Source: Phoronis australis (lineage: Eukaryota > Animalia > Phoronida). Taken from it: a stretch of DNA of 64,000 nt. The stretch is from contig NMRA01000172.1 in the NCBI GenBank assembly GCA_002633005.1, positions 489,303-553,302 of the forward strand. The letters are read 5' to 3'. Positions 6,774-48,949 of the stretch are shown piece by piece. The notes under the pieces were generated by a model. The model saw nothing but the letters and a program-made list of their open reading frames with translations, made no database searches and was not told where the DNA came from. How positions within the stretch are numbered: the first letter of the stretch is position 1; the number at the start of each line of letters is the position of its first letter. Made by a program: the position numbers and the translations under genes.

Positions 6774-9700
6774 ATGGCATTGGAGAAGAATCCATTGCTA
6801 TGCAAACATGGAATCTCTTTGATCAGCTGCGGATCGTGTTCAACCAGAGAGAATATGCTTCATTTCTTGAGAAAAGGTGAACAACGTCAGGGTGAAATGA
6901 ACAGTGTACGACTGCTGGACCAAGTTCTTCAAGACTCCTCTCTTTCAGTCATGTGTAAAGATGAACTGGTAAAACTTAGATATTTTTGCTGTCGTGAATT
7001 ACATATGACATAGTGCATACAAACACTCATTTTTGCACAACTCAGGTGCTGACGGCAAAAGTGATGCAACCGAGTGACTTTTAAAACATGAGCCACACCA
7101 CCGATAAGTACGTTTTGAACAACCATAAGCAGCACCAGCAAATCCCCTGTTTAGTCCCATTTTATTGATGAAAACGCAGTACAGGAATACTTAGCCTTCA
7201 TACAGCTAGCTGGTTGGCTAACAGTAAAGTTCCCTTCTGACATGATCATAGATCGCCACCTGCTGCATCACATTGGTGAGCTACAAATAACATAGGTCGA
7301 GAAAATAAAACTTTAGTAACACAGGTGCCAGAGATGCACATTTCCGTTAAATCCAACTGGTTACTGCACTGTACACATACATATATAAGATGAAGGTAGT
7401 CGTCTTTGAACTTCAACAAAAACAATAATGCGCGTCAAAACACAGTCACGATTGTCAAACAAAGCTATTTCTTTCACTTGAATCCGCCTCGACTTTGAAT
7501 TTACACACATTTTCCGAGTTTTATAAGTTTGACTAGTTTTCAGACTACGCTGGTTTGGCTGCCTTCAGTTCTATATAATTCTGTACAGCATACGAAAATT
7601 ACCGAGCGCTCTTTGGACGAAGTCTGTCGAGAAAAATGAGAACACGCAAGACCATGCAAAATCGCGCGAGTGTTTCGCGAGTATACTCACTGGAGTAACC
7701 AAATAAAATGACGGCTACTGAAGTGATTAGTTGGTGAGACTGCAGTGTTGAATTATGGGATAGCATGCATGAATTATTAGATGTAACTCGCTGTTTCAGT
7801 TAAATGAAATTATCTCGCCGCAACTGTATTGTTTTCGTATTGTGTCTCGATGAAGATTTCATCAGAGATAATTACTTCAGTGAGTCGCAATAGCTTCATT
7901 TGACAACTAGGAGTGAGAATTACTTCTCTTTTCACGCGAGCGTGTTTGTTGAAGTTTGAAGATATTTACCTGTATTTCAAATGTAGCGTAGTACTGGTGG
8001 TAGTATAGAAGTGGATCGTTAGGATTTCGATCAAGTGTGGCTTGTTAATAGGACGACATTAAGAACTTGTTGTTTTCGCTGTCGAGAAAATCGAGAGAGA
8101 TATTCATTTCCTTCGCTTTAGAGACCACCCTTGTTGCAACTTGATGTCTCGTGTATACACTAACTGTGTATAAGTTGCTCACCATACAGGTCGCAGATAT
8201 ACGAAAGAAAAATCCTCTATCAGCACCGTTCACCAAGAACACCTTCGCATTCACCTAACGAACTTTGCAGATACATTTATATAGTGTATGTGTCATATGT
8301 TATCTTCGTTGTTACCCGTTGCGGACAGATTTGTAATGCTGCATTTGACAGCCTCCATGCTTACTTCCAGTTCGGGATGCCAGCGCTGTGCCTCGTGTCG
8401 TCTATCGGTCACGAAGAGAGTGTGAAAAAACTACTTCACGCGGGAGCTGACGTCAATTGCGTTGTACCCACGGTACTTTGAATTATACATTTTGAAAACT
8501 CCTAAATCGGCAAGCATGATTATTGCTTTCTGGAAGTTTGACGGATGAGACCAAAGACCACTCACCTCGAACCACAGAATTTCTGTTGTAAGAGAATGAG
8601 AAAGTGATTGGTGCGCAAATTGTACATGTAAATAAAACACAGTGAAATTATAGTGAATCTGCAAAAGTTGTCGTTTATAATGTGCCGCTCAGGTACTGCA
8701 TCTGGAATGTAGTAACTGACAGAACTAGTAATGGTTGAAATCGCCAAAATAAGTTTTGCACCATTCTATAAGCGTGTAGGACGATTCAAGAGTCTGTTTC
8801 ACTATAATGTCGCAACTTTAAGACGTTTTTACACATTATCTAAAAACCAAAATTTATGACTGGCCCTAGTTGCATGAAAATTATTCGCTGGATAGCAGCA
8901 ATGACGTCATTACAACCCGTCTCTTGGGTATTGCTGAACACTGCTTCTGACGTCATGCAGCAATTCAACTTATCCATCATTACTTCTGAAGCTACATGCA
9001 ACCTGAGCCCTGTATCGTTAATTGCCATTTAGACATTTGTTAACGAAACGTCCTAAAGCTTCTAAATTCTATTGAAACATGCATCAGGTCTTCAAGCTGC
9101 TGCCCTCAGAGGCCACTCGTATTATTACGATCTTAATGTCTTGCGTCATAACTTAAAATTAAGGGGGTGCGGATTTTTGAATTTTGATATTTTGTACTTT
9201 GTCTTTGGCCTACAAAATTTGTATTTCACGGAATTAGGTTTGCCGGCACCTCTGGTAACAAAATAAAGTTTACACGGGTCACTAAAAAATCAACTTTTAT
9301 TTAAAGCAACGATTGAAAATTTTTGACAACGGGTTAAATTCCTTGTTTTGTGATACTGTTATTTTTAACGGGCTCACTTATATTCCTAGTTTACCGATAT
9401 TTTGCGTCAGCGAAGGAATAAAAGTATTTTTTCTCGATTCTGACACAAACGACTAAAAAAGGTTTCTAAAGATTACGACTATAAAGGTCGTAAGTTTTTT
9501 AGGTATACGACTCCCAGATCACCAAATGAAAACCCAAGTCACACTTAGCGAGTACATTTACATCTAAGGTGGGATTGATCAGTTGCGGCATTTTTACATT
9601 TTAGGACAAGAACTCTCCGTTGATTTTGGCGACACAGGGAAGGCATATTGAACTTATCAAGCTACTGATTACAGCCGGAGCTAACCTAGCGCATTGCAAC

Positions 9701-12700
9701 AACGTGCGTATGAAGTCATTTCCATGTAGCGGGAGACGTAGAGAATTTCATTGGAGATTGACTAGAGCGTGACTCTCAACCATCTCTTTCATTTTGTTGT
9801 CATCGGCACTCTTAACAGAAGCGTTGACCGCAGATTCAGAATAGTTACTTGACATGCTGTAATATCAAGACAATTGCGAAATATCAAGAAGAGATTAATT
9901 CAAACACTGAAACTATCAAACTCAAGTTATAAACGTTGCGTCCGTATCTCACGGACATCAACTCAGGGGCGAATCCAGAATTTTGAGTTAAGGGGGGGCA
10001 GGACAGAGTATTGGCCAGGATTTTGTCTGCCAGACTTTGGCACCCCCGAACTGCCAAATGGAATCTGGCAGAATTCTAGGTGGGCGATGGCCCCCTTGGC
10101 CCCCCTCTAAATCTGCCACTATGTATTGACCTCCAAATGAAGTTCTGGTGCGGTAGATCAGCGGTGGTTCTGTCCCATCTCAGACCACCATCTTATTGAG
10201 AGCTGGTTTCTCCACGCGTTCATGTAGTGTCCCCTTAACCTCTTCACTAAAACAGTAGTCTCCCCAATCCGAGATAACGACATCCTTGGTTTCAAAATCG
10301 TGTCTTGCTCTGTTGAGATGACTACGTGCAGTCGTATGTGGTCCCATAATTGTGACCATGAATTGCTGACACACAATCACGTTCAAGTACTGTTTCGTAT
10401 CAGCAACATATCTGTCTGAACACTGAGACGCCGTGCGCTACACACCATATACTCCATGAGACTTGATCCCCTTCGGAGCTCAATGCAAGCCCAAATTGTC
10501 GCAACAACCCAAATTGTCACAACTTCGAATTGCGACAATTTGGGTCAGCGCTGCCCATGATGAATTCACCAGTTGGGTTTTTCTTGTAATACAAACTGTT
10601 TAAATGTCCTCTACTCACACCGAAGAACCGAAATAATAACTGTCACCGAGGAGTCCATCAAGAGACCCAAGTCAACTATCTTCAACAGAAAGCATGCCTA
10701 ACAACATTAGAAATACCAAACCTGGAAAACCCCATCTAGAGCCTTTCGTCAAGATATGGAATACCTACCGTTATGAAATTTGTCTTACACTCTTCCTTCT
10801 ATAGTACATGTGATTTCAGTGCCATATACGACAGCGGTATTTAGTCTAAAGCTGGTAATGTAACTAAGGAGCCATAAAGAGAGAGACCATTTCTGTGCTA
10901 CGGTAGCACGGTGCATGATATTTCAACTTCCTCACATATGGGACAGGAACATCGCCGATTATATACAAAATAACTTGATTTTTTGTGAATTTATGTAGAA
11001 CGCAACCCTGTCAAGAACGACTGTAGATAATGAGCACATTAACCTGCGGATGTGCTTCGTTTGTTGAAATTTATGTTACACCCGAGTATCCAAGCAGACG
11101 TGACGCGACTGAGATGAGTGTACATGTAAAAAATGAATCAATTACTGTATTGCATTTATTTCTTCGGTTAAGTAACGTTTCATTGACTGGCGTACGTTAG
11201 CATTTTGTTACTTTCTTGATGTTGTTGAGAAAGTGTGATTTCTCGTTTACAGGAGGGCAACAATGCTTTCATGGTGGCTGTGTCGACTGGAGATGCACAT
11301 CCCGTCAACCTCCTTTGGCAGTATAGGAGTAACTTTAATATTAACCAAGAGAACGTGGTATGGTACAGTGTGCGCTATTAGACTTGTCAAGCGATATGCA
11401 CAAACGAAACCCTTCGTTAACATTGTGCACCTGCTGGTGTATATTATTCAGCAACACTCATGATATTTTATGTCCTAGTAAACATATAGACTTAATTCAC
11501 GCCGACAGGAGGCGCGTTTCAAAACGAGGCTTGCTACGATAGCTCAGTTGACTTATTGGCATAGCTGTATGCTGCGCTGCTTGAACGGCTGTTTTACAAT
11601 TCCTAAGGACGTTGAGATTCGGAAGCGTTGGGTAGTTGACATACGCCGCGACGAAGGAAAATATGTGCGTGTAAAATTTTTAAATGTTTTCGAAAAGTTA
11701 GATCATATTTTAATTGTCGTATCTCGGTTGCCGAGCATCACGACAACGACCGGAGAATTTCCAGCCAGCCAGAAACTACGGATTGAAACATGATGCATTT
11801 TTCTTTCAAAGAAGGACAGGGCTCTCAATCCCTCGATTTTGGGGACAACCATTTCCCTAATTCCCTCTCAAAAATATTGAAAACAATCATGTGAAATTCC
11901 TCCCACGAGGCCTAAAAATTCCCCTAGTGATTGAAAAGTTCTCTCCGGAGTTCAAATCACCTGTAACCATACAGGTGACAATTTGAAAGAGCACAAAATG
12001 CTACTTCAGACAGAGCCTATGAGAGCTTGCAACAGGACGGGGGTGCTATATGGTGATCGGGAGGTAGATTTCCTCCTCACAAGGCGAAAAAGTTCCCCTC
12101 TCAGAAGTCACAGACACTTTTTCATCTCATTTCGATGACCGAGGCCCATGAAGAAACATAATAACCATGCTTGCTCTGTCCAGTTATCTGAAATTGAGTC
12201 ACTAAAACGAGGTTATGCTTTAGATGAACGATTTAGGTGCTTTAATTTTAAAATTCAACTTCGCCCAGATTGATATTTGAAACCTAACACATGAAATAGA
12301 CGTTCATGTAAGAATTATTAAAACCAAGAAAGCAGAATCGATGATCAAATAATTTTTATTTTCAATTACGAGCCTGGTTTTTTGTTTTGATAAAAATATA
12401 TTTAATAACATCAATTATTCTTTCAGGTCAATGACAAATCAACTGTTAGTCCCGGTAGTCCCCACCTCACCAGGCCCTAGGCTGTAGTTGATGTTAATAT
12501 TCTTTATCAACAAATTAAACCAAATGTGTCTAATCGCACATGAAAGCAAAATGCGATGAGCCACCACTGTCGAATAGTCAAATCGTCAACAATACGAGCA
12601 GATGACTTGGTTCGCGTAGAAAGCATTTTTATCAACAAATTTACAAGAAAAAGCTTAACCCTGCATTCAGCATGATACCTAATCCGTAACATTGCGATCA

Positions 12701-15700
12701 CCTCAATTTGGTCATGTTTACTTTTCATGCTTCGAACCTTGTTTTCCGAAAAAACTTATACCCTTTCGTCAGACAATTCTTTGGTACATTGACTTGTTCT
12801 CTATTTTTCTACGTCTCTGCGGTTAATTATCGACACATTTTAAAGATTTAATACCAAGCTTGAACTCGAAAGACCGGCCATTTAACTCACGCAATGTCAA
12901 CTTCTGCTTTGTTTATCGTAGTAAGCCTCGCTTTGGATTTTAATGTCCGCCGAGTGAATTAGGTCTATAGTGTGCCATCATTATCAAGACTACTTTAACG
13001 TTCACAAATGCAGGCCTGGCGTGCGTTCAGTAGCGCTTGGACCTAAGCTAGTACCCAAGCTAAAACCTAGCCAAAGTCACGTGCTTTCATTTGAAATACA
13101 CGGCAATATCTCACGTAATCTCGCGAAGTCTTACTTTTTAGCGAGATTCTAGCGTTACTGGCTATCCAGAGAATACTAGACTCATTTCCGCAATGGTACT
13201 TTTCCTCTCAAATGGCTGGTATTTTTATAGCTTTATGTTCCTCCTATTCACATGTGCGGATTTCAGTCACTGGCAGGTCATTTTCAACCTGGAGAATAAT
13301 TGGTCGTATGACTTTTGTTCGCACATACAAAGAACGTTCACCTCCGAGGGTAATTTGAGGCAAGAGAAATACCCGAATTGTTCCGAATGGCTACAGTATT
13401 TTTTCCATGTCTGGCTCATCCCGAACCTTCTATGGCGTTTTCGTTACTTCAAATTATCGAGGAGACGCTGTGAATTGAGTTCCAGACTCCCCGTTTGGGA
13501 GACCGGGGTTTGAATCCTGGCTTTACTGGCTGACAGTCGAGCATTGCACAGGGGGGTTTCCTAATCCTCTGAGCCCACTCTTACTATTGAATGTATGCAA
13601 GGGAAAGCATGAGAACCTGGATATAATGGCAACGCGATTTTTGGGATTGTGTTAATATTAAATTTATCAAGCCTCGGAAATGTTACATATTTGTGCATGT
13701 GCGAACCAAAACTAGAGAAAAGATTTGGTCAAAATAAAAATCACGCCAAACCACCTAGGTTTGAAAAGAAATGTGCGACGTCATTCTCATTCCGTTGTCC
13801 ACCTGCTGATGTAGTCTAATCTTATTTCACGTTTTGTACTTTTATAACAGAGATGTTTCGGAGCATTTTTTTCATTTTGACAATCGCATGAGTGCTGTCA
13901 CTCTGATTGAAGCTCTCACATGTGGAGATAGGGAATATTACCGTGGGATAATCGGAGGCTACGAAAATACCCGATGTATTCGAGATGGGTCTGGCAAGAT
14001 CAACAAGTCTCATGCACATTACAAGCTAGCTTGGCAGTCAGAAGTGTAGTTCGTCACGGAACTGACCGTTTGGCCCTCTGCGTTTCATCTTTACAGAAAG
14101 GCTATACGGCTATTCATCTGGCAGCTGAGCGACAATGGGAGAGTTGCGTGAACATGCTGATATGTGGTGGAGCTGATAAACAGTGGCAAACATACGTAGG
14201 TACCATCGCCGACCTCACTCTACAATTCATAATATCCACTCAGTTCGAGTAAATATCCAATTTAAGTTGACTAAATACTAGACTCGGAAAAGCATCTACT
14301 TGCAATAAATGATGTAATCCGAGTAGCCGTCCGTAGACCATGTTTTTGCGGGTAAATGAAGACCTGTGAAAAGGCCGCGTTTCGTGAGTATGCTCGGCTG
14401 CTTACTAGCCTATCCTAGCAAAATTTTAGCCACTGATGTGCTTTGTTGGTCAGGTTAAAACGTCGAATTACGGTGTTGAATTCATTAACCGAGGGATATA
14501 ATTCACTGTTTCCCTTCCACGAGCGAAGAGTTTTTGTCGCACGTGCAAACTAACTATTGTGCCTATGGAACTCATCTCCACTGAGCTGCAGTGAAAATGG
14601 TTTCGACTAGAAATAGCTGGTGAAAGGGTTTGAGTTCAGAGAAAAACTTTAAGAGCCAGCCATCCTAGATATTCCCCAGTTCAATGTGTAGAAAAAACAA
14701 CCTTTTCAAGCCTAAACGTTATACCAAAGTGTAACTTCAAAGGGTGATCATCGAACATGAACATCCAATTTGCTATGCCTTTTACATTATTTGGCCCCGC
14801 TACATGAATCAGGGACAGACTTTGACAGAAAACTTGGTGGTACAGTAAAAGCATGCTAATAATTAAGTACAAATACTCTGTCGCATATCCAAATTTTTTT
14901 GTATGAAGATGTACCCGTATCGTTGTAGGACGGATCCACTGCATTAATTATAGCAACCAAAAAAGGTGACAAAAAGACAGTGGAGCGCCTCCTGGCGGCG
15001 TCTGCAAGTGTTGACATAGAGGATAACGTAAGTGTCTTTGTATAACAGAACGTATTTCATCACACATGTACGTGGGTAAACGCACAAACGATGATTTCTT
15101 TTCCAATTATGATAAGATTATGTTGTGTTAATTATTGCAAAAATGTATTTCAGGAGAGTGCAACCGCTCTGTGTTATGCCATAAGAGATAAAAAGTGCGA
15201 CCTTGTCGATTTGTTGATGAAAAAATTATTTTTCTCCAAAGACGACAAGGAAAGTTACGTGAGAGTAAGTGTCGTTGCTTTATTTTTATTTTTCAGTCCG
15301 TTTTAGATTTAATAACATTACACTGTTTTTAGTCAATGTGGAGCGTGTTTGTTCAATAAATTAGTAAACAATAACCTTGCATATTTGACAGAGACGCATT
15401 GACCTCTTGAGGACGAAGACAGTGTCCAACGGCACAATCAGTAAAGAAGATTTCTTCGATTCCATACTTATCCCCGTTATTCAAGAGCTGTGCAAACATC
15501 AAGAATGTCGAGATATCCTGTTTCGGATACGTGCTATGTTCCAGCTGATACCGTTCCTAGACACGTATCTCACCAACGAAGAGGTTGCGCAAAAGACCTT
15601 CATCACCTTATGCATGTTGATGTACGTGTACTCGAGCACGCCCGATTCCAGATTTGTAGACCAGTTTGTCAGTGCCAAAGGACACGAACTAGTCCTAAAA

Positions 15701-18700
15701 AGTCTTTATTTCTACGACGCCAGCAACAGTTACGATCCCAAGATAATTTTCACTGCCTTTATGCCAATCATCAGCATCTATGCTACACTAGAAGGTCGAG
15801 AATGGCTGAAGAAGAATTATTACAAGCTGTCCCAATACTCCACGATTTTCGAAGCCGGGTGTGACATCTCATCCTTTCTGGACTGTTGCCGCGGTAAATT
15901 CATGGGAACATGGCAGAGATTTAAGTGGCACTTCACCAAAACTTCGCAAGAACAGGCTGAGCTTGTCTGTGCAGAGTTATTAGAGAATGAAGAAAGGGAA
16001 AAGGCAAGGGAGCGCGCGAAAAAAGAAAAACGGCGGGAAAAGAGAAAGAATCGAAAAATTCAACAACGTGCAGAGCGTGAATATGCTGAAAAACTTGTAG
16101 ACGGAGATGATTCATTGTTCGATGACGTCAACAATTCTCCCGATTCTCAAAATTGTAGTTACACGCCGAAAGGAAGCGTCATAGCAGACTTTCTCAGTGG
16201 CGTTCAGCAGAAAGTGAAAGGTCTGCTAGGGAAAATACCAGCGTCTCCACCGCGTGATCAGAGGGAGAATGTAGACGACATACAGAAGGTTCAAGAACAG
16301 CATGCAAAGAAGAAACGAAGGAAGAAGAACAAACCGAAGAGAAGCGAAGAGGATGAAGTTTTGTTGAACCACTGTGCAATAAATCCTGTATTCGACAGGA
16401 TACAGTATTCGCCAAAGGTGATAAAGTCACGTACAACTAAAGTACCAAACCTTCCCCGAGTAGAAGACATTATAGAGCCTTGTGAAAATGTTAGTGGTGA
16501 TGCGCCTGAGGTACTAGGGGCTATGGCTACGCCGGAGAGGGTTGGTATCAATTGTAGCAAATTGAGCTTGCCTTGCCTTGTGGCCGGACCAGAACATAAG
16601 GTCACGAAAGATTTACTTGAATGTAATCTCACAAACAGCGGTCTTGTGCCGTTAGACACGTCGTCACCAGTGAAGTCGTACGAACAATATGGTTCAGTAA
16701 ATATGAACGAAAACGCAAGAGGATACCGTAGCCAGGCTCCTCCCAGAGTTAACATATCGCTAGATGACGTAACGGAAGATAGTATGGCTGGACTGTCGCC
16801 CATAGGAACACCCAGGGAGGTAGACACAAACGGCAGTCTAACCAGCAGCTCTATAACTCCTGAGAAGTACGGCATGAGTCCTCGACCAAAACATGGCAAA
16901 CATATCGTTCGTTTTAAGGAAATGAAATGCGATGGTCCACCATCTTCCTACGCGTTTTGTGCAGTAGGCGAGTCTCGTGTGGGCAGTATGTCACCCAGAG
17001 GTCGAACAGCTACTTGGGCAGAAATAACGAAGAAAGATGCTGTCAAAACTAGACCATGGAGTGCAACAAATATTAGGTATGGCTCACATGCTTCAAAACT
17101 TTCACAACCTGTATTCTTCCAACCAAACGACAATTTTCCTAGATCAAAGAAGTCAAAAAGACCGCCGCGATTAAGGCCTTCCCAAGACACGAAGTTAGAC
17201 ATTATTTCTCCTACGAAAGACAGTCGAATCGTTAAGTCAACAAATGCCGTCGAAGGAAAACCAGCCATTCAAAAAGTGAACCTGCGTGACATGAAGATAC
17301 CACTTTCTAGTTTCATACCAGATCTTTCGAGACTTAACAATGAGACAGGTGCAGGTGCTGTTGAAGATCGAGCTACAGAAACTGACAACGAACGAAGAAA
17401 AGATCGAGAGAATAAGTCATACGAACAGCAACGTGAAAAGTCGGTAGAAGTGAGTTGCTATCGCATGAAACGAGATGCGCAGAATACTACAATCGAACAT
17501 GTAGTCGACGTTGACGCAATGGCAGAGGACCCAGACTATGTCCGCATGCAGATGGAGGCACTGGATAACTTCAGCAAAGATTATAAAAACCTTAACTTCG
17601 TTCAAGATGTTAGCGGCTGGCTGTCGGAAACGTCTGACGGTGACGTCAGCAGCGAGAATGGTGTAGAGAAGAAAGAAGGCAGCGTTTCTTCAGACGCAGA
17701 CATGGAAGTTCAACGGATACTTCAGGAAGACGTCATCGTGCACGAAAATAACCCCATTATCTCACCAGTGACTAAGAGTTACCATAATAAATGCACTGCT
17801 CCTCCCGTTTGCTTCTATGATTTTGGCATAAAGACATCTCACGAATTTTACGAGTCGGTTACCGGTGACAGAAAGCTTTTCCGCGACACAAATCTTCTCA
17901 CTGACATTCGGGTGGAAAACATTCCTGTGGCACCAGACGTGGAATTTGCTCGGTTGACACCAGATCCTGATGATGGGTTTTCCAATTTGGATAACACGGA
18001 GTACATATACTATCCCGGAATGGATCACAAAATGCTGCAGATTAGAGGACTCTTCCAGAATACGGCCAACAATCGCTTTCACAAACTGATACAAATGCAG
18101 TTTGAAGCTGCTAACGAGCGCAAAGTTATTGGCGAGATGTCATCGATGGGCAGGTTCTACCAGTCGCGCTTCAGTCCTAAACAATTTGTTCCACCTCCTG
18201 CGGGAAGTCTTTGGTCCAACTGTGGTAATCGGCAGGTGGCAGTAGGTGTCCCAGCGAGCAACGCAGTGGATTGTCGCGACAATGACTCGTCCATAACGTG
18301 GGTTCCTAAAAGTCAGCGTTGGAGATCAATCTTCAAGGAGTTGACGGCTCTGTCGATTGAAACACACACTAAAGTTGGTCCCATATTGTTTCACGCCCAC
18401 AATCAACGCTTCGGTCTAACCAGCAGGTATCGCCAGTAAGAATGATTACCTTATCTAGATTTGAAAGTACCACGAACCTGATATGAGTTGAGTTTCGTAG
18501 ACGTAAGAATCTTGCGAAGAAAGCAAGTGTAATCACGTGCTTTGCTTGTGGTACGTGACAAAATCTCACGATGTTTTGCACGATATATTGCGTTTTCACG
18601 AGGTTCTTGTGACTACGGAACGCACGCTTAACCTATGTCAAACACTGCTTTTTGATTTACACCACTTACCATTGTATAATTGCCCCTTACTCAAAGTAAA

Positions 18701-21700
18701 AATGAATTGTAGTTCGCCATTACTCAAGTCCAACTTAAAAAAGCATAGTTTGCACCCCATTTTACCATAGAGGTCTCTGCTAACAGTCTAAGCGTGTGCA
18801 TTACCGTAACAGTACCACGGAGCTTTCGTTGAGATCTCAGTCGTAGACAACCCTAAGTCATTCAGATCAACCAAATATGTATTGAGCGAATGGCGGAGAT
18901 CGGAAACAAGCAAGGAACTGCGTCACTAATTACCCAATGAGTGATCGTAAACTCCGAGTGCTTTTAACAGACCCAAAGAAGAATTACCTCAGAGAGCTCA
19001 GTAACAATAAAATAAATTAAAGTTGAACTTGTAGGTTTGTTCCTTTTCTGTGGTTGCTTGCCAAAGTAGTTAGAAGCACATCTTGTAGCGACGATGTGAA
19101 TATGAAGAAGGCTGGAAATTATCGAATGTTTATAAAAACGGGTTATGTGGCGAAATTGATCCACTGAAACTAATTGAAGCGTGTCCAGTTAATATTTCAC
19201 GTGGTGCTGGGGATTAACACTGCGCACATAGCCCACGAGGTACGTCATTGATGCAAAAGGTCACCTGTTTTCATATTTTTGTTTCATTTCACATTTACAA
19301 ATTGTCAGTGAATACAACTGCACTTTCTTTAGAGTAGATTATGTTAAAATAGCATTGTCGTTTAGTTCTTGTTATGCATTAGCACAGTTAGGAGCATGCA
19401 AATACATCTTTAAATATAATTTGCGCTCTTACCGAAAGAGGCCTCGGGAGATTATCGAGAATAGAGTTTAATACGGTGTCTTGACCTTGAGAGTCATTTA
19501 TGAGCCGAGCACGAATTGAAACGAGCTATCAATTCTTGCCGAGCCCTACATGTACAATCGCTTCCAACCTAAGTATGGGACGAATGAGACCGTTGCATAA
19601 CCGAAAAAGGTGTTGATCATCAATTATTTGGTAGCTTTTGACAGTAGCTAAGTGTGTTCGTGGAAGCTCAAATAATACGAATCTTCAGTTACTGTTGAAT
19701 CCGTCCGTTTTCACATACACTTTGAATGCTTAACATCTCATTATTTCTCTACTTTTCATCTGAAGCAATCACCGTGTTCTCGTCGGATGAGTCATGTTAA
19801 AAGCTTGTTATCTGTTGCTCTGACTGATATTTTTCATGTCAGCCAAATTATGTCTTTCGAAATTCTTGTCTTTCCAGCAACCATTCCTCAGCTTCCTCTT
19901 ATCTCGGTATATTGGAGGACGGTACAGAAATCTCAGTGCGGCGCATGAGTCTGGATGACTACGCTCATTTAAAGAAAAACTTACCTACCATGCTCTATCC
20001 AGCAGTCAGACACGAGTCGTTGGCCAAGTTTCTGGTATATATATTTACTCTTGATGCTGTTCCAGAAGTTAAACACTGTAGTTTTTTGTGGACCTAGATT
20101 CAGACTATGGCTAAAAGTACATGAGAACACGAAATATCAACAATCGACTAATGTGTCCAGGAAAAGGCTCAAAAACCTTTTTACTTTGCGAATAACATTT
20201 TTAAAGTGAAGCACCTTTCCGAAACGATAAAATGTAGGCCAAAACAGCATAGTTAGTTATGGTCTTGTGTTTTCTTTGTTAAAAAATTGCACAAAAGCAC
20301 GCCAGCAAGAGTAAGCAAGGCTTGAAACACCACGGTTTGCCAAGCGAGTAAAAGCAAATCATTTTGGTAGTCTAGGGTGGCTTTTCTTTTCTGAAAAATG
20401 AAGCAACAAAAGAAAAACCGACATACGGACTCAATTTTCAAAAACTAAATACGGGTCAGAGCCTACTGTGTTGTTGGCCTTATTACTACTATATCTGTTA
20501 TTTTTGCTCGAGAACGTCTCATTGATCGAAATGCTCTATGTGTCATTTCGATGTTTCAGAGTTTGAGACACCCACCCTTGCCTTAATTACATGAACAATT
20601 AATGTTTTAGTTTACAATTGGCAGAAGCAATGTTGGTCGAATAATAGTGGCACGGCAGATAATTACAAAAATCACAAGAATCATTCACGTTGTCATGCAA
20701 CCAACAAAATTGGTCTGTGATTCCACAAAAATGGTGCACCTGGTCCAGCCATGCAGCTCAAGCACACCCGGTGTACTGCAAAAGACACTAGGCCACCTTA
20801 CTGCCTACTTTGCTCTAAATGCACATTCAAAATATAGGCCATTTCCGGTAGCAATCTGGCGTGTTCTTACACAGTTTGGTTGATACAAAAGTACATTAAT
20901 TTTGTATGCATAATCCTCAATTCTAAGTGTCACACAATATTCTGCACCTTGATAGCATGTTTTTCAAATTTTACAAAAGGCATTTAGATACTGAGGACAG
21001 TAGTGCACAATGAAGCTTGAGTGTTTCTGACTACATCTGGCACCATTAATTGAGTAAAATGGACTGCTGTGTTCAAGCTCCGCCGGTATCATAAAAGCGG
21101 CTGAAGATATCAATGAATTACACGACTGTTATGTAACTGCTGTGCTAGCTTCAGGGAAGGTGCTGCTACTTTGGGACATGCAAAGAAATGGGAGATGTCT
21201 CTCAGTCAGAATCTATATTGTGATGTCGGTGTTTGGAAAGACCATAAGAAGGAAGCTGCATGAGAATGGGTTAGGCAGAGCAAGCACTGCTATTTTATAA
21301 CGGCCAAGCACACAGCAGGAGTTGCTCAGAGGTCTGTCCACCACTGCCAGCATGGGCGATTAGATCGAATTCCAACTTCTACGGCGACTACTATAACATC
21401 TTTCCTAGGAACAAGCATTCCTTTGTTCCGACACCCTGGTCAGTAGAATGAGGACATGAACAATGCCAGTTGACAGGCAACAACACGAAGACAGTTCAAA
21501 GCGTCCCGCCTCTTTTACGAATGTCAGACCTGTACACTTCTATGAAGAAAGTCCACTTGCGCTTCAACTCCTGAACTTTTCCTGGTTTAAAATATTTCCA
21601 ACAAATGTGCACATATACACAAGTATTGAAAACGCCACACTTACAAGTAAGCCTGGACGTCTGTAATTTTTCAGCATGCAACAGAAGACGATCATTATGG

Positions 21701-24700
21701 ATACCTGGCTATCGAACTGTGTGAATACAATCTCGAAGAGTACATACAACACATGAGGTCGCGTAACGAGTACGATTTCCGGATTGCGAAGCGACTGGTG
21801 TGGCAGTTCTTGAAAGCTTTACAGTACTTGCATGAAACTTGCCTCGTAGCTCAAAGAAATTTAAAGGTAAGCATGTCAAGAAGGCCAGGACAGCCACTCT
21901 GCACGATTTTATTTGAAACCACTATGGCGTTTACAAGCCTCATAAGCAAGTGTTTTCTTACGTGAGCTGTATGTTGTTTGCTTCAATATGCTTACTTATT
22001 AAGTTAATATTGGACTGCACTATCTAGCCTCAGAACATACTACTCGACACTCTGAACAAGGTGCGACTGACCGACTACAACATTAGCCGCATGACGGAGA
22101 GCGGGCAGACGATTCTTTACGACAAGGGTGTGGGTGAGTCTATCTTAGATATTACACGAAGAAATAGTTTGAATTATTGGAACTAAATCAAGACTCGGTT
22201 GTTAATTATTGTCAAAGCCTTGAAGGATTCTTGGCCTTGATACTCCTTAATAATTGTAGAGAATGTCGTGCACGAATCGGCTTCCAGTCCTCATAGCTTT
22301 TGAAACAAAATATAGGCGTCAGAAAATTTTTGTCAGAAATCGCGAATGCTGAAAAGTGTGCTATCATTAACAAAAATTTTGCACTCAGATAAATTTGATT
22401 GACCACAAATAACTGTCAAACAATTTTTACAATATAATTTTGACCTTTTCCGGCAAGTACAAATACTATTCAAACTCATGACGCGTTCAGATGTCAAGTT
22501 TAAAAAAAGATCGATACGTCGTCTGACCATAAAGCCGATCAGATGCTCACAATTACAGTTCAGAAATGTCTCGTATGCGGCGAGTAATTAGCGTAACATC
22601 ATGTACAAAATGGCAATTACTTGAGCGCCACCATGGTTGAACAGAAACTAGCCGCTAATCTGGTCAAAGGGATGTACGGCTCTCACGGTAAGGCAGTAAA
22701 TCAGGTTGGACGATTAGAAGGCAGCTCAGCCATCTGACGCGTTCACATGTGATTTTTTTCAGACGACAGATAAATCTCTGATACGGTTTGTTGCATGCTG
22801 CTGCCTGACCGGACGGCATGTGAAAGCCTTGTACGTGTACGTAGATGACCAGTACAAACATAAATAAAAACCTTTGATTCGTTTGATCTCAAGTTGGTTG
22901 CAGTTGACCTGTTGAACGCGATCTCATTCACAAAACTCATCGATTTCATGACAGGCTGTAATTGCTGGCGACCAAAAGAGTGCGTGACAAGTGGCCAAGC
23001 TTGGACGGGGACGGCATCCGTAGTAAACTACACGACAAAGTCAGATATCCAGGTAACGGACTTAACTCATGAAAGTAAATCAGACATACATGTAAAGAGC
23101 TTACATACATGTACAACTCGAGAACAACTCTACGTCGAGAAACAACCAAAAATTAATACGATGTTATATCAGGCACTGATACATTCCCCATTAAATCCAC
23201 GAGAAAGGGAAAATAAGTGGTTCCAACAAAACCAGGCAGTTGTGCTTTACTAACCTGGGATGATGTTTGACGGAGTGATGCCCGTGAACGCAAATAATTC
23301 AATTTGGAATGAAATAAGTACCCTCCATTACTGCGATAAGACGCCGCATGGCAGATATATAGTTAAAAAATCAACTCGGACTCGTGAAGACAGAAAGGGT
23401 ACTTTACTCATAGATTGATCAAAGTAGGTTTTTGGATTTACACTATACGGTTTGAATTCGTGAAATACCCATCCACGCCAGGTTGCCGGAATGCTTGTGC
23501 ACTACATTTTGACGGGAGGAGTGCACCCATACGGTGACAACACGTTCGACATAGAGCTGAACATTGCGCGTGGTTGGCCACGATGGCGAAGAATAAATGA
23601 AGAGGCCAACGACCTCATACGGTGGATGTTGTCAAATGAAGAGAAAGAGCGACCCAACATCACACAGACTTTAAGGTACTCATGCATCTATGAAAAACTG
23701 TACATGTAAATAAACATACATCTAGTTTTTTTCGACCATAACTTGTTTTTGTGAAAAAGAGCAATTTAGAAATTAGAGGACCATCTTTTGATCGATAGTG
23801 TACAGCTGCCTTACTTGACGTCATCGAGATTAGCTTTGGTTAAACTCATTAACTACTGCTTACAATTTGAGTTGTAATTCATTGAACAAAGCAATCAATT
23901 ACAATCTGTTACTGGCCTTTGCAGACACCCTTTTTTCTGGCCAGAGCTCAAACGAATGGACTTCTTACATACAGTGGGAAAAGAAATCCTGAGCGAATTT
24001 CAGTACGGGTAGGTAACTTGTCCAATGCATCTGGAATATTAATTGAATTAATTAGACCTTCGGTAGTACGAAACTCAGACGAAAGTTATGGCATTTTGAT
24101 TTTCTCGTACCTGATTTTATTCATAGAGTATGTCCGTTCAGGTGGCAAAATGGTTCACCAAACTTACAGACGTTCAAACCGCAGACGGCTCTGACTAAAG
24201 CACTCTTCAAATTATTGTCGGGCCAGTAAAAATAGACCTTTGCCGGAAGATCTAGATTTAATAGAAAAACACGCGTGTAACTAATTGTTGAAAGACGTTT
24301 GGCATACAAAGCATTCAAAAATCTGTCACGGCTCTTTGCAAAGAAGAGAATATTTATGATCGAAATATGTTGAGAATATATACACAAAACGTGCCGAGAG
24401 TAGCGTACATGAAATAATATCCCACGAGACATTATTCCCCGTATCGACCTCGACTTTCGGTCTCGGTTCGTACGCGGAATAAGGCCGAGTGGGATATTAC
24501 TTCTTGAACGCCAATCGAGGTACGTTTTGTATTTATCCCATGCGCTTCGAATTCCTAAGTTTCTTACATTTTTTTCGGCAGATTTTTCAAATACTTCACC
24601 CAGCCTGTTCAAATGGCGGATCACATCCTAATATGTATGTACTTGCGCGTTAGGCTGCAAGTTTTCTCTGGTAAAAGAAACAGTTTTAAATGTAACGATT

Positions 24701-27700
24701 TATTTCTTGAAAAGAGGTAAGAAAGATGAAAACAACGGCAACTTTGCAGTGAATGTGTAACATCTCTTGGAGCTGGTTAAAAAACAAAATTTGATATTTT
24801 AGTTTCCTAGGAATCGGCGACTGAGTTGCAGACGATATAATATTCAGCAATTGAAAACTGAGACATAAGTGTCTCATAATTAACAGTTTTGTTCCAGATT
24901 TTACGTTTAGGGCCTGGTTGCATGTCGAGTGTTATTTACACTGTTGCAACTGTATTACTTTAAACTATGTTCGGAAAGTTTGAGGATCGAACCGGCTGAA
25001 GACGTCGAGTCGACATTGACCTACCTTTTGAACTTTCCATGTCAGAGGTCACTGTTGAAGTGGTGTGGGAGGTGAATACGGAAAACTTTATTACATGGCC
25101 GTATTTCCCTCGACAGATTCAACGCGTATGGGATAAATCTCTGTATTTTGACGATTAGTCCGAACTTGTCTTTTAGCCCCGCTACTAACAGCGTCATCAG
25201 TGAGAGGCTGAACAATGTCTCCTTCCAGGCGGTGAGCAGAGACTGGGTGAGTTGAGTGAGAGGGTCTTGGGAACATGGGTGTCGGCTGAGTTTGTGTAGT
25301 GTTTAGTTTTGACCTAAGTGGGAATTGATGCGTGAGTCTATGTTGCCAGTTACTAGCTTATCAAGTTATATGCAAAGACGTGGAGGAACCCAACGACTAT
25401 GTCCAACAGCTTTGGGTACAGTATTTTCATCACTCATAAGGGAGAGTTGAAATATTGAAAAAGGGGCGGGTTCGTCCTGCTTTTAGTGTTTACACTGACA
25501 GAGTTAAAAAAACATTTTCTAATAACTTTCATACTCTAGATGTCGCAAATCGACGAACTGTTGCTGGAAGAGATGCGCACGCACCGTAACTACAAAAACA
25601 ACGTGGCCGATTTCCTGCGATTCATTGTCAACTGCCAGACACAATACAAAAACCTGTAAGTCGTTCGCCTCCATTACACGCAGTTATTTGCTAATTGATT
25701 CGTATGCTTTTTTGTACGTCATTTGTCATCTAATTCATTTTTGTATATAAATCAACGTCAGGAGTACTTTGTACCCCTATATAGTTGTCAACATTGAGTT
25801 CTGGAAGTAAAAAATTGCCACGCTCATCTGATCTTGAATTATTGCCGAATAAGCCGGTTTAATTTATTGTACTATTTAGAATAAGGGTGGACCCCTTTCC
25901 TCAACAACAGAATAATGAACTAATGTAGTCAAACAATAATTAAATACAGGTAACAAAGCAACAATCAAACAGGTTAAGAATTTAGATAAAAAATGACGAA
26001 GGATTATGAAAATAGACTAAGGGACGTTAAGTTAAATAAAGAAACGATGCTATTAATAGTGAAAGTATTTACGGTATTGAAAAATGGCATACTTAAGACA
26101 GAAATAGGTGTAAAAATGGGCAAATAAATTGCAGTCTCTTTTTAATATTAAATTTGAAAGCATTAATTCAATCGGACCGTTTAATTTCTGGGCGAAGGGA
26201 ATTCCATATTGCAGCACTGGCATTAAATATAAGATCTCTTGCCGGTCTCGGTTTTAATCATTTTAAATGAAACATTACCAGCAACGGATAAACGTGTAGA
26301 GTTTACAGCTTGACTGCTACTAAATTTGCGTCTGAGATATCTGTTTATGCCACAGGCAGAGAATTTTTTTTTTATTTTCATCAATCTAAGCTTGGAGCAC
26401 AAGTCGTCGACCCAGGTGCCCCTAATTCTAGTACCCATGATAGCCCTGGTGGCTCTATTTTGGATTACCTGGAATTTTGCTTACAAGTGTGTCGCTGGTG
26501 TGTCCCCAAACCGGTAAACAATAATATGGGGCTGAATAATAGAATGGTAGAGTATCTTAAGACTGCTGAGATAAAGAAATTTACCTCGTGGACGTTTTAA
26601 AGTACGCCGATTTTCTTTGACATTTTATTTGTGATGTAATCTATGTGCATAGGTTGGGATCTAAAATAAGGCCCTAGCACTGAAACTTGTCGACACTCTC
26701 AATATGGAACCGTTGATATAAAGACACAATTTCTGTCGTTTAAATTACTAGTGGGTTCCCAACTGCATAGCCTTGGTGCCACAAAGGTTAAGAATAAGTC
26801 TATTTTGAACCAGCCAGTCATGGATAAGGGCAAGCTCATCGTTGAGAGAAGTTTTAAGTTCATTATTGATCCAGCTGTGGACATAATTACAGTGTCATCG
26901 CTGTTGTGGAGGACAGGGGAGATCGTAAACAAAAATAGTGAATAATTGTGTTCCCAGAATGGAACCCTCGAGGAGGTACGCCTTGATAACTGTTGAGTAG
27001 TCGGAGAGAATATCACCGTATTTGGTAGCGTGTTTGCAGTCGTATACGTAGTTTTTAAACCAAAGGAGTTCGTTATCGTTAACTCCATTGGACTGTAGTT
27101 TCCTTAAAAGGATACCATGGTCCACAGTGTCAAAGGCTTTCTTAAGGTCAACAAAACAGCACCTGTAAGCCTCCCCTGGTCCATATTATGGAAGATAAAG
27201 TCAGTAGCGTAAATTTTTGTAGTCAGTGTAGAATGCAGGGAGTGGAAACCGGACTGGTGTCGATAGAAGGGAATTTTCCTCCACGAATTAGTAAACTTGC
27301 TTTTGGACACACCTTTCAAGAATTTTTGGACGTTGCTTGGAAGACCGATATTGGCCATTATTTTTGCAACTGGACTTGTCAGTTGTCACCGTCTTCAAAA
27401 ACAGGAGTAAAGATCGCCATCTTCCAATCACTGTGGCCGTGTCTAAACTCAAATTTATGAAGGGTCTCGGCTATTAGCTGAGAGACCAGTTTCAGTACAG
27501 TTTGGCATAAATGCTTATCGGTGTCACCGGTAACTCACGTCACAGACAATTTGTTCATGTGCCATCTTTAAATCTGCAATTTAGGGTTGGCCAACCCACT
27601 TTAACTATGTTCAAAGCGCTTTCTTGGGTGGCTGATAGTTTCGTTGTTTTGTTGTTACCGGAACTAGAATCTTATTGTGTTAGGGAATATCATGAGAATG

Positions 27701-28095
27701 GACTAAATCGATTTTCATTTTTAGCCAGCTAAATAGCCAAACGTAGTTATAGAAGTGTATGCGGAACAGTGGAACCTCGTAGTTCAGAAAAAATAGAGTT
27801 TTAACTTTGAAATGTGTGTGTGGGTATCCTACATTGCCTGATGACTAACACCTGCCAGAATATTCTCGACCTCGCCACCTAGTATCCCTTGCTCGACGTC
27901 TCATCTTCTGGCAGACGAAAGACAGGAGAAACTTTCCACCTTAGTATATTTTTCAGATCCCCCACGAGTAAATCTATACTCGGCGAAGATCGGCTGTATT
28001 TCCTGCGGAGTTTTCCCGCGCTTTTCATGTCAGTCTACCGCGTCGTCAAGGGAAGTGAGTGGGCAATGAAAATGAGCTTCAGCAAGTTTTTCTAA
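6774..28095 (+). CDS. RNase L/IRE1-like multidomain protein (ankyrin repeats, helical/coiled-coil/disordered insert, pseudokinase, KEN domain), ~1636 aa, 16 coding exons
   Basis: Phase-consistent GT-AG exons: 6774-6968, 8371-8472, 11253-11357, 14097-14195, 14929-15027, 15154-15264, 15392-18435 (alternative donor 18426), 19878-20034, 21675-21866, 22028-22133, 22955-23052, 23482-23675, 23925-24008, 25177-25246, 25540-25655, 27957-28095; total 4911 nt, ending TAA. Five phase-0 ankyrin exons (e.g. KGYTAIHLAAERQWESCVNMLICGGAD). Pre-kinase motif WVPKSQRW (cf. RNase L WKPQSSHW). Kinase motifs YLGILEDGTEISVRR, LAIELCEYNLEEYI, QRNLKPQNILL, KSDIQVAGMLVHYILTGGVHPYG, HPFFW. KEN motifs YKNNVADFLRFIVN and YFLRSFPALFMSVY. 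The first exon is the least certain. Confidence 0.88.
8371..15264 (+). CDS. Ankyrin-repeat exons (five repeats, one per exon) of the RNase L-like gene
   Basis: Phase-0 exons of 99-111 nt: FGMPALCLVSSIGHEESVKKLLHAGADVN, EGNNAFMVAVSTGDAHPVNLLWQY, KGYTAIHLAAERQWESCVNMLICGGAD, DGSTALIIATKKGDKKTVERLLAASASVD, ESATALCYAIRDKKCDLVDLLM. Confidence 0.9.
9964..10120. mobile_element. Short non-autonomous element with GC-rich imperfect TIRs
   Basis: caggggcgaatccaga ... ctaaatctgccact with G and C runs. A similar right end (tagatctgccactg) occurs near 35017-35030. Confidence 0.5.
10130..10400 (-). mobile_element. Penelope-like element, C-terminal fragment of the GIY-YIG endonuclease
   Basis: SHLNRARHDFETKDVVISDWGDYCFSEEVKGTLHERVEKPALNK resembles the PLE endonuclease tail (HL..H.F...DV.ILD.E..WF.RGVKEAI.....KP.LN). 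Confidence 0.6.
11548..11670 (+). mobile_element. Degenerate THAP zinc-finger fragment, DNA-transposon derived
   Basis: SCMLRCLNG.CFTIPKDVEIRKRWVVDIRRDEG matches the THAP pattern C..C...F.FP.D...R..W...IRR. No intact transposase follows. Confidence 0.55.
13016..13160. mobile_element. MITE-like element, same family as 33724-33867 in opposite orientation
   Basis: Reverse-complement similarity over ~145 bp, including ggcaatatctcacgtaatctc. Confidence 0.7.
15392..18435 (+). CDS. Giant 3.0-kb internal exon of the RNase L-like gene
   Basis: Matches the 1010-aa ORF at 15407-18439. Acceptor ttgacag ends at 15391; donor gtaaga starts at 18436. In frame with the flanking ankyrin and kinase exons. Confidence 0.88.
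19878..24008 (+). CDS. Pseudokinase-domain exons (RNase L/IRE1 family)
   Basis: Kinase subdomains are recognisable in order across six exons. VAVK reads ISVR, HRD reads QRN, DFG reads DYN, APE reads PKE; the domain ends RHPFFW. Confidence 0.88.
25177..28095 (+). CDS. KEN (kinase-extension nuclease) domain exons
   Basis: Spliced sequence SERLNNVSFQAVSRDW|MSQIDELLLEEMRTHRNYKNNVADFLRFIVNCQTQYKNL|SPTSKSILGEDRLYFLRSFPALFMSVYRVVKGSEW aligns by eye to the RNase L/IRE1 RNase domain. Confidence 0.85.
26100..27510 (-). mobile_element. Decayed LINE RT fragment (CR1/L2-like) in the last intron of the RNase L-like gene
   Basis: Minus-strand DLKKAFDTVDHGILLRKL, HQSGF, a degenerate GVP..GSILG and SDDT (from YADDT); many frameshifts. 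Confidence 0.85.
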
Positions 28096-28523: not shown

Positions 28524-29686
28524 TTAATCAGTTTGCTTTTCACAGATGTATCCCATGCCAATCGAACAGTCACGCTGTATCCATGCGCCAGTCGTCGCGT
28601 TGAGCGCTACGCAGACATACTGTTGGCCTTCACTTCTGTTCGCGCCCCGAAGTTCTGAAGCATCTGAAACATATTATCTCACCATTGAAAATCCGCAAGT
28701 CATTTTAAAGAAAATCGAGAGTTCATTTTATATAAGAATCGTGGTGTTTTCCAACCCACAAATCTAGTAACAGGTACAAGTTTAGTAATTGCAACAATCT
28801 CGCCAGTTTGATACCGTTGAAGTTAATTGCGTTTCTCGATAGAGTTTCAAGTTTAAACTGATCTCAAAATTGCATGATGTTATTTCATGAAAGGGGTAAA
28901 AATGAAACGTCTAATCTGCCAATTTGACTTTCTTGCTACCGAAATAAAACACCGGTTATGATTTTGTTTCATCCAAGTTAACAAGATAATCTTCTTTACT
29001 ACTAATTTGTAGAAGTTGCCGTTACCGTTTGCCCAGTTAGTGAAGATAACGTCATCACCAGTGTTGTCCCATTTAAATTGACTACTGCTGCTTGTTTTGC
29101 TTGCTCCAATCCACAAGCTCGCCACCTTCAGGCTTTCTTCGGCATTACTGACCATCGCCTTTAGAGTGGCCTTCAAATATCTTTGCTCTTTTCCATTGTT
29201 GATGTTAACCAAGTATCCCCCTGATTTCATACAATAAATTGATGCCAGTGACCTGTCCGAGACTGAATCAACAATCATGTAACACGACCCGGAAAAGAGG
29301 GTGTACCCCCAAGAACAGGTTGGTGCCGGTGTTGTGGGTATGACTGCTTGTAGCGAGTTGGCCGCTACCTGACACACGCGTCTGGTTTGATGACAGCACT
29401 TCTTGTTCCTTGCCATGCTCAAAGACACCCTTCTCTTTATCGTCTCCAAGCTGTCGCGAACGTAGCTGTGAAATGCATTGAGGTCGCGTTCCATATTCTG
29501 TAGTCGTGCGTCAATTTTGGACAGAGCCAGTGCATTCCTTTCGTTTAGATCTCTTGCTTCTGAGTCTGTCGGCCTAGCCACTGAGTCAGCTTCAGTAATA
29601 GGAATTACCTCTGATTTTACTCCGTCATAAAGGAACACAAACACGATCCAGAAGGACGACATTCTACCCGCGTTGAACAGTTTCAT
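28524..29686 (-). CDS. Secreted coiled-coil + C-type lectin domain protein, paralogue 1 (~266 aa)
   Basis: Exons 29026-29686 and 28524-28663. Hydrophobic signal peptide and heptad neck (LSKIDARLQNMERDL). CTLD motifs CSWGYTLFSGSCY, YCMKSGGYLVNI, LWIGA, FKWD, FTNW, CVAL...WIQRDCSIGMGYICEK. Confidence 0.9.
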
Positions 29687-31879: not shown

Positions 31880-32964
31880 TTAATCAGTCTGCTTTTCACA
31901 TATGTACCCCATGCCAGTGGAACAGTCACGTTGGATCCATTCGCCATTCGTAGCGTTAAGCGCCACACAGATATTGTTCCTGTTCGCTCTAGGAAGTTCA
32001 GAGGCACCTGAAACAAATATACACACCATTTAATGCGGCAGTCGTCAACAAAACTGATATTTAACTTCGACTACAAAATAGCCTACATAACTGTCGCTCT
32101 AACACTGGTCTCGACTTGCAGGTCTTTTACTCAGAGATGACTGTGTGTTTTGGACTTAATTTCAACGAACAGATAGTTCGCCATTGTTCGATACCATGCT
32201 CGCTGAAAAAACTGACGTGCCGTGACAAGTCATTTTGTGGAGCCTAATATCGAACTGTTAGATCTTTGTAACCCAAAAATGGTCTTGTTTATAATAATTA
32301 CTGTACCTTTTGCCCAGTTAGTGAAGGTTACGTTATCGCCAGTTCTGTCCCACTTAAATTCACCGTCTCTGCTCGTTTTGCTTGCTCCAATCCACAAGCT
32401 TGTTGCTTTCAGTGTTTCTTCGGAATTTCTGGCCATTGCTTTTATGGTAGTTTTCAAAAATCTTTGCTCTCCTCGCTCGTTTACGTTTACCAGGTGACCC
32501 CCTTCCTTCATACACATAATGGATCCTAGCTGCCAGCTTGAGTAGGTATCAACGATTTTATAGCAGGAACCAGAGAAAAGGGTGTACCCCCAATAATTAC
32601 AAGTTGGTGCCGGTGTTGTGGGTATGACTGCTTGTAGCGAGTTGGCCGCTTCCTGACACACGCGTCTGGTTTGGTGACAGCACTTCTTGTTCCTTGCCAT
32701 GCTCAAAGACACCTTTCTCTTTATCGTCTCCAAGCTGTCGCGAACGTAGCTGTGAAATGCACTGAGGTCGCGTTCCATATTCTGTAGTCGTGCGCCAATA
32801 TCGGATTGTGGCAATGCATTCATTTCGTGTACTTCTTTTGCTTGTATCTGTGTCGGTCTGGTCACTGAATCAGCTTCAGCAATAGGAATTACCTCTGAAT
32901 TTATTACGCCATTAAGGCACACAAACGCGATCCAGAAACACATTCTTCTGCTAAACATTTCCAT
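31880..32964 (-). CDS. Secreted coiled-coil + C-type lectin domain protein, paralogue 2 (~261 aa)
   Basis: Exons 32307-32964 and 31880-32007, with the same phase-1 intron after FTNWA. Motifs LWIGA and CVALNATNGEWIQRDCSTGMGYICEKQTD. Confidence 0.9.

Positions 32965-36644: not shown

Positions 36645-48949
<12,305 letters not shown>

Follow-up and report, generated by a model that had tools for sequence, protein, structure and literature searches.

An expressed Phoronis australis protein with degenerate kinase and KEN sites belongs to an old, apparently undescribed clade

Structure and expression of the gene

We analyzed a 64,000-nucleotide stretch of the Phoronis australis genome (GenBank assembly GCA_002633005.1, contig NMRA01000172.1, positions 489,303 to 553,302 of the forward strand), here called the window and numbered from its first letter. 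It carries a gene, spliced and expressed in two of four RNA runs, that encodes in order ankyrin repeats, an Armadillo-like (ARM-like) helical domain, a long linker, a pseudokinase and a KEN domain (Table 1). The product has lost catalytic residues of both kinase and KEN and belongs to a clade of proteins with like losses. The gene extends beyond the kinase stretch at 19878..23052 that a first-pass annotation, made from the letters alone, had described.

The gene lies on the + strand and is intron-rich. RNA evidence came from four runs with the same label, X1 to X4, and paired read figures give X1/X2. Each intron is GT-AG; those from 18426 to 27957 are each crossed by 66 to 129 reads in X1 and in X2, and the three introns of the ankyrin region by 5 to 18 spanning reads each. 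The spliced frame is open from 11253 to a stop at 28093-28095 (1534 codons, 14 exons), with all 13 joints backed by reads, one of these by loose read ends alone; this 1534-residue model begins at 11253, and the N-terminus upstream of that position is not fixed. No membrane helix was seen in the model (best 19-residue hydropathy 1.29), the extreme N-terminus lying outside it. Coding exons have read depth in X1 and X2 and zero depth in X3 and X4, so expression differs between samples.

Different splicing that would restore the kinase Lys and the HRD motif had been named as grounds for rejecting the annotation; we looked for it in the RNA reads and did not find it. The only well-supported alternative in the kinase is donor 18435 versus 18426 (19+18, or 37, versus 67+66, or 133, reads), whose product gains three residues ahead of the glycine-loop region, regains no glycine and restores neither motif. 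A joint at 23675->23931 was rejected as a separate splice: the first letters of the next exon sit between its sides, making it the same splice with a mismatch. Among the 40 of 60 read differences that were displayed, three fall in kinase exons (P/P, T/S and N/N; two synonymous, one Thr/Ser), and no motif is touched.

Table 1. Exons, protein domains and transcript features of the pseudokinase gene. Paired read figures are X1/X2.
Feature	Position	Strand	Evidence
Probable upstream exon, one ankyrin repeat; start codon further 5'	8371..8472	+	Pfam Ank E 6e-05; outside read-covered stretches
Ankyrin exon	11253..11357	+	Pfam Ank E 0.059; 14 loose X2 read ends before 14096 match its 3' end; aligns to orthologs
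Ankyrin-region exons 14097-14195, 14929-15027, 15154-15264	14097..15264	+	Joints 8/18, 10/5, 16/14 reads; Pfam Ank E 7.6e-06 (first), 3.9e-06 (second), none (third)
Antisense transcript, ~0.8 kb	15280..16097	-	Opposite-strand depth 21-38 over 15360-16063, X1 and X2
Armadillo-like helical domain with long terminal helix, start of 3-kb exon	15392..16030	+	Structure model
Charged, polar linker, ~750 residues, predicted disordered	16031..18298	+	Composition
Likely internal two-way promoter in 3-kb exon	16097..16228	.	Sense depth step, opposite-strand ends
Pre-kinase extension opening with W-x-P-x-S-x-x-W; alternative donor 18435	18299..18426	+	
Pseudokinase exon: lost glycine loop, beta3 ISVRR, helix C without Glu	19878..20034	+	Reads and alignment
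Pseudokinase exon: hinge ELC, helix E, catalytic loop QRNLK	21675..21866	+	Pfam Pkinase E 9.2e-05; joints
Pseudokinase exon: PQN, DYN, activation segment	22028..22133	+	Pfam Pkinase E 0.0097; joints
Pseudokinase exon: P+1/APE element CWRPKE, helix F start	22955..23052	+	Reads and alignment
Pseudokinase exon: helices F to H	23482..23675	+	Pfam Pkinase E 8.9e-05; at most 64% identity to best database matches
Two exons, 23925-24008 and 25177-25246: kinase end, first KEN helices	23925..25246	+	Joints 96/76, 120/96, 100/92 reads
KEN exon, degenerate site V-N-C-Q-T-Q (25627-25644)	25540..25655	+	Pfam Ribonuc_2-5A E 6e-04; aligned to human IRE1 via ortholog and family profile
Last coding exon, KEN C-terminal helices, stop 28093-28095	27957..28095	+	Joint 83/100 reads; Pfam Ribonuc_2-5A E 6e-04

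Degenerate kinase and KEN sites

The motif replacements reported by the first-pass annotation all hold in the spliced frame. The glycine-rich loop is absent (NHSSASSYLG at 19879-19908), ISVRR stands for VAVK (19930-19944, Arg codon 19939-19941), QRNLKPQN stands for HRDLKPQN, with QRNLK and PQN on either side of the intron 21866/22028, and DYN stands for DFG (22073-22081). Its wider statement that all kinase motifs are substituted holds for each motif taken as a word. Individual positions are nonetheless conserved: the DFG Asp, Lys and Asn of the catalytic loop, the APE Glu, the Asp of helix F and the Arg of subdomain XI, together with the hinge Glu and Cys and the P+1 Trp. Losses that it missed are the helix-C Glu, which is absent, and the beta2 Val and beta3 Ala, both of which are Ser; these two positions form the adenine lid of a kinase. 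The alignment thus places Arg, no Glu, Asn and Asp opposite K599, E612, D688 and D711 of human IRE1 (numbering from PMC7736581). With the beta3 Lys and HRD Asp gone and the DFG Asp present, the domain is a pseudokinase by sequence definition. With the DFG Asp and the catalytic-loop Lys and Asn in place, it may still bind Mg-nucleotide. The segment GCNCWRPKE, proposed as an IRE1-like activation segment, is present (22133-22980, its G split from CNCWRPKE), but it is the P+1/APE element, with Trp and Glu kept across the whole protein set, and gives no evidence of IRE1-like regulation.

The KEN site reads V-N-C-Q-T-Q in place of R-N-K-x-H-H: the His has become Gln and the Arg Val, and the Asn and the catalytic Tyr are kept. 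The KEN catalytic residues of yeast Ire1 are H1061, Y1043, N1057 and R1056, and without the KEN His activity falls at least 3e5-fold (PMC3149027); the KEN active site is ~95% conserved (Anantharaman et al. 2013, PMC3710099). The Cys of the window site (25633-25635) occupies the position of the IRE1 KEN lysine, beside the catalytic Asn and two residues past the lost Arg.

A clade with shared losses

A homolog search with one exon as query returned 136 matches among 1.84 billion representatives, and two more searches returned 87 and 25. From 157 domain-covering proteins we kept 101; the 56 left out were redundant isoforms and fungal IRE1 rows in excess, and P0024, P0168 and P0193 did not reach the required coverage. 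In a tree of these proteins, a single branch unites the window protein with 51 others (52 of 102 rows; SH-like approximate likelihood ratio test, SH-aLRT, 98). A careful tree of 50 rows sets a group of 26 family rows and P0024 apart from IRE1 and the active paralogs (99/97). Within it the window protein pairs with P0024 (98/95), and its placement among the orthologs is weakly supported (81/49). Both trees were built without any RNase L sequence and without named animal IRE1.

Named members come from gastropods, bivalves, the annelid Owenia, many insect orders, the scorpion Centruroides and the spider Argiope. Nearly all are labelled uncharacterised or hypothetical, and all named orthologs are protostomes. 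No clade member from flies, nematodes or vertebrates was met in the homolog searches, which is weak evidence of absence; such scarcity may explain why the clade has been little studied. The long matches resemble the window protein at both ends, in the ankyrin/helical head and in the kinase-KEN tail, and the window head aligns to Patella P0007 at 35% identity over 400 residues (E 1e-61, in the 136-protein set). A profile of the helical domain matches clade proteins exclusively among the tree rows, a result that is partly circular since the profile was built from 31 of them. The 3-kb exon as query matched 0 of 6075 candidates, and PDB sequence searches with single exons gave nothing useful.

The catalytic losses run through the clade. 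Kinase Lys, Asp and Asp are all kept in 0 of 52 family rows versus 45 of 50 others, and KEN Arg and His together in 0 of 52 versus 43 of 50; these counts come from related sequences, not independent events, and a few beta3 rows may be misaligned. The HRD Asp survives in a single family row, Sinanodonta P0163. The catalytic loop is marked instead by Gly (49/52) and Asn (43/52), that is, HRD has become HGN, and the KEN-site Cys is found in 41 of 52 family rows versus 2 of 50 others, with molluscs reading N-C-C-L-H. The window protein carries this Cys, and its catalytic-loop QRN shares the clade Asn, with Arg replacing the clade Gly.

An alignment across orthologs had been proposed as a check on the first-pass annotation. 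Run here, it extends the losses to the whole clade and removes the emphasis that had been laid on the Lys-to-Arg change: the beta3 site is K in 22 of 52 family rows, R in 9 and L, H, Q, S, D, I or M in 21, as expected of ordinary drift. As aligned, HRD to HGN is a family trait and Lys-to-Arg is not special. The analogy drawn with RNase L K392R, a change mentioned in a single secondary passage of PMC4165196, likewise falls away, as it concerns activation of an RNase that the window protein lacks.

Decay of the gene, or an artefact of the gene model, scarcely deserves credence. The many substitutions at canonical sites and the lack of coding-exon reads in X3 and X4 would fit it, but the frame is open over 1534 codons and 14 exons with read-backed joints, and like losses recur across a 52-row clade; the reads and the family together refute it.

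Two further observations concern single rows and relatives. Sinanodonta P0163 is the sole family row that combines the beta3 Lys with an HGD Asp, and its DFG Asp is gone. Catalytically intact soluble kinase-KEN paralogs were found in lungfish (P0068, with ankyrins), salmon (P0087), the soft coral Xenia (P0018, two units per chain) and amphioxus (P0060), and hemichordate paralogs, P0098 among them, have an intact kinase and an altered KEN.

The losses also differ between lineages. Molluscan rows lack the DFG Asp in 25 cases and the beta3 Lys in 22 of 25; the KEN His is present in 1 of 25 arthropod rows and is gone in Owenia too. Fold residues, by comparison, are kept in at least 90% of rows. 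Identity of the window protein to the family rises from 0.20 in the N-lobe through 0.26 in KEN to 0.39 in the C-lobe, as expected if ATP binding were relaxed and the C-lobe selected.

These figures bear on whether the protein could be a nucleotide-sensing pseudokinase, one that, like RNase L and JAK JH2, changes shape on binding Mg-ATP or ADP but does not catalyse. Such a function could draw on the DFG Asp, on Lys and Asn of the catalytic loop and on the hinge Glu and Cys, all of which are kept; the catalytic-loop Asp-to-Asn change is the state of the ATP-binding JAK JH2 (PMC4718504), and kinase-dead IRE1 D688N still responds to pocket ligands (PMC7736581). However, the window protein has lost the glycine loop and the helix-C Glu, carries Ser at both adenine caps and Arg at beta3, and is least conserved in the N-lobe, and the molluscan losses just given remove the DFG Asp and most often the Lys. 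We consider this explanation unlikely.

Still less probable is that the protein binds RNA or acts as a weak RNase independently of its kinase, as the functional counterpart in invertebrates of RNase L with a different ligand. The domain order is that of RNase L, the pre-kinase extension is common to both, and KEN residues persist in molluscs (see below). Against this, in the window KEN Val replaces Arg and Gln replaces His, the His is also missing in Owenia and in all but 1 of 25 arthropod rows, and ~1000 residues part the ankyrins from the kinase, which is not so in RNase L. On balance we find this highly doubtful.

Fold of the kinase-KEN unit and the head

We modelled the kinase-KEN unit of the pearl-oyster ortholog P0027 as a stand-in for that of the window protein (predicted local distance difference test, pLDDT, ~90 over kinase-KEN). 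The model matches IRE1 (Z 34.0, root-mean-square deviation 2.8, 351 residues) and RNase L (Z 29.9, deviation 3.6, 351 residues) well above other kinases (Z 24.4). Its pre-kinase extension, from model residue 164 on, is reached by RNase L alignments alone, a comparison limited by IRE1 chains that begin at 560-563. The W-x-P-x-S-x-x-W motif of this extension recurs in 7 other family rows and 3 active (fish-type) paralogs and in no IRE1 row as aligned.

An intact fold would permit a dead unit to act as allosteric partner of an active kinase-KEN RNase, pairing with IRE1 or an active paralog and either blocking it or completing the dimer. The whole IRE1-type fold is predicted to be kept in the ortholog model. 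Nevertheless, our alignments show no counterpart of the charged residues that IRE1 has near beta3 and following helix C, which we take to act in the back-to-back dimer, and no active partner from the same species was met, no genome-wide search having been made. A precedent exists in yeast, where dead H1061N Ire1 boosts wild-type Ire1 ~tenfold in trans and one His per dimer is enough (PMC3149027). We regard a partner of this kind as improbable.

The first 213 residues of the 3-kb exon give a helical solenoid at pLDDT 86.7. Its best structural matches are ARM-type solenoids (Z 13.7, deviation 3.5, 168 aligned residues; best Foldseek E 0.04), a level that repeats can reach through common arrangement alone, and no Pfam family matches at E 0.1. 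Ankyrin and ARM-type folds are protein-binding modules. Together the ARM-like domain and the linker place ~970 residues between the ankyrins and the kinase; BLAST aligned the ~750-residue linker to none of the ortholog linkers. Predicting a complex between the ankyrin/ARM head of the Patella protein and the kinase-KEN unit of that same protein gave a score of 0.00, which carries no weight either way.

A likely internal promoter and an antisense transcript

Sense depth is flat near 20 over 14108-16144 (20/25 at 16144) and then rises ~five-fold to 112/72 at 16228, where no joint is listed. Opposite-strand reads end at 16097 and 16082, and AATAAA occurs on the minus strand at 15290 and 15284, near the far end of the antisense transcript. 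The depth step and the opposite-strand end are most simply read as a likely two-way promoter inside the exon. Library bias toward 3' ends was discounted as the source of the step, depth being flat up to the jump. Such a promoter would leave about four fifths of transcripts without the ankyrin/ARM head. The first in-frame ATG, at 16523, is preceded by four out-of-frame ATGs downstream of 16228, so translation of a head-less product is not assured. Database isoforms with a shortened N-terminus exist in Zophobas, Halyomorpha and Centruroides.

Neighbouring features

Two C-type lectin genes encoding a coiled-coil neck lie in tandem at 28546-29686 (-) and ~31900-32966 (-). The former (Pfam Lectin_C E 2.4e-08) is highly expressed in X1/X2 and ~100-fold lower in X3, and it and the pseudokinase gene end tail to tail near 28300. 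A VPS35 exon lies at 47295-47696 (+) (Pfam E 1.3e-17). Broken frames at 26600-27500 (-), within the last intron of the pseudokinase gene, and at 60757-62764 (+) are presumably remnants of LINE-type reverse transcriptases; 60757-61146 has no Pfam match. Near-identical duplicated blocks at 200-780/860-1500 and 3440-4330/4820-5720, recognized by eye and joined at single N letters, may be allelic assembly duplicates.

A probable non-catalytic role

The gene is expressed and correctly spliced, and its ankyrin/Armadillo-like/linker/pseudokinase/KEN product lacks the catalytic residues of both enzyme domains. We conclude, with a probability of about 0.6, that this product serves as a cytosolic scaffold, its head binding proteins, its linker acting as a tether and its C-lobe and KEN forming a rigid unit for docking. 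Because catalytic residues are lost and yet the gene is expressed and old, a non-catalytic role is the best reading. The idea of a doubly dead enzyme kept as a scaffold, put forward in the first-pass annotation, thus survives as to the losses themselves (the kinase catalytic Asp, the KEN Arg and His) and as the preferred interpretation of them.

Under this scaffold model, an active kinase-KEN ancestor would have lost phosphotransfer (HRD to HGN) before the mollusc, annelid and arthropod lineages split, and its ATP pocket would have drifted afterwards. Those lineages parted more than 500 million years ago. The folded C-lobe and KEN would have been kept as a rigid docking unit, to which the linker may tether a head whose ankyrin/ARM modules bind a second partner. 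The shorter transcript from the likely internal promoter would supply the docking unit without the head.

Several observations weigh against this model. Arthropod rows keep the beta3 Lys in 18 of 25 cases and D/E-F-G in 24 of 25, and the window protein itself keeps the DFG Asp and the catalytic-loop Lys and Asn; nucleotide sensing may therefore persist in part of the family. Molluscan rows keep the KEN Tyr, Asn and His in 24 of 25 cases, so death of the RNase is not beyond doubt family-wide. In many kinases the N-lobe is in any case the less conserved of the two lobes, the modelled fold is that of an ortholog, and we reach the scaffold role, likely as it appears from sequence, by exclusion.

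A bolder proposal treats the protein as an old invertebrate sister of RNase L turned from enzyme to regulator. The dead unit would pair with IRE1 or an active kinase-KEN RNase and tune RNA decay in stress or infection, the clade-specific Cys of the degenerate KEN site might act as a redox or metal switch, the two-way promoter would set the ratio of head-less to full-length protein, and RNA cleavage that needs no working kinase might persist in molluscs. We offer this as speculation with the odds well against it.

Comparison with known kinase-KEN systems

The finding is the family-wide double loss, in a clade that is real, old and apparently undescribed. Our literature search, judged mostly from listings, found no description of it. 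The main text of a centipede kinome paper names no IRE1-like kinase. Members of the IRE1/RNase L superfamily are known as active RNases under the control of a kinase or pseudokinase, and this clade suggests that the kinase-KEN unit also has a function outside catalysis.

The window protein is not IRE1, and it is not demonstrably RNase L. IRE1 is its best match in sequence and structure (family profile scores of 208 bits for IRE1 versus 140 and 131 for RNase L), and the two share a long activation segment with the P+1 Trp and APE Glu; HRN is seen in the engineered IRE1 chains 6xdb and 8uvl, which carry the kinase-dead change D688N. Unlike IRE1, the window protein shows no lumenal domain or membrane helix and has lost kinase and RNase residues, and in both trees the clade branches apart from the IRE1 rows, whether fungal, plant-like or other.

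With RNase L the protein shares the ankyrin, pseudokinase, KEN order, a cytosolic nature and an alignable pre-kinase extension (ortholog model 164-584 on RNase L 333-727; profile positions 3-391 on 322-708). It differs in the ARM-like domain and long linker between ankyrins and kinase, so that the directly joined (2-5A-site) arrangement is absent, and in lacking the canonical pocket (beta3 Arg, no helix-C Glu), the catalytic Asp and the KEN Arg and His, whereas RNase L has canonical nucleotide binding and an active KEN (PMC4718504). Nuclease-independent binding roles are described for RNase L as well (PMC4730318).

Chu et al. 2023 (PMC10400998) assign RNase L to jawed vertebrates and report that several kinase-RNase proteins outside it gained ankyrins independently. 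The portion of its text consulted here is silent on catalytic loss, the ARM domain and this clade, which may figure unnamed in its figures or supplement. Active instances of such proteins in our set are salmon P0087, lungfish P0068, Xenia P0018 and amphioxus P0060. As a kinase joined to PF06479 in animals outside the RNase L lineage, with a gain of ankyrins, the window protein resembles those proteins, and as an independent ankyrin fusion it bears on the origin of RNase L.

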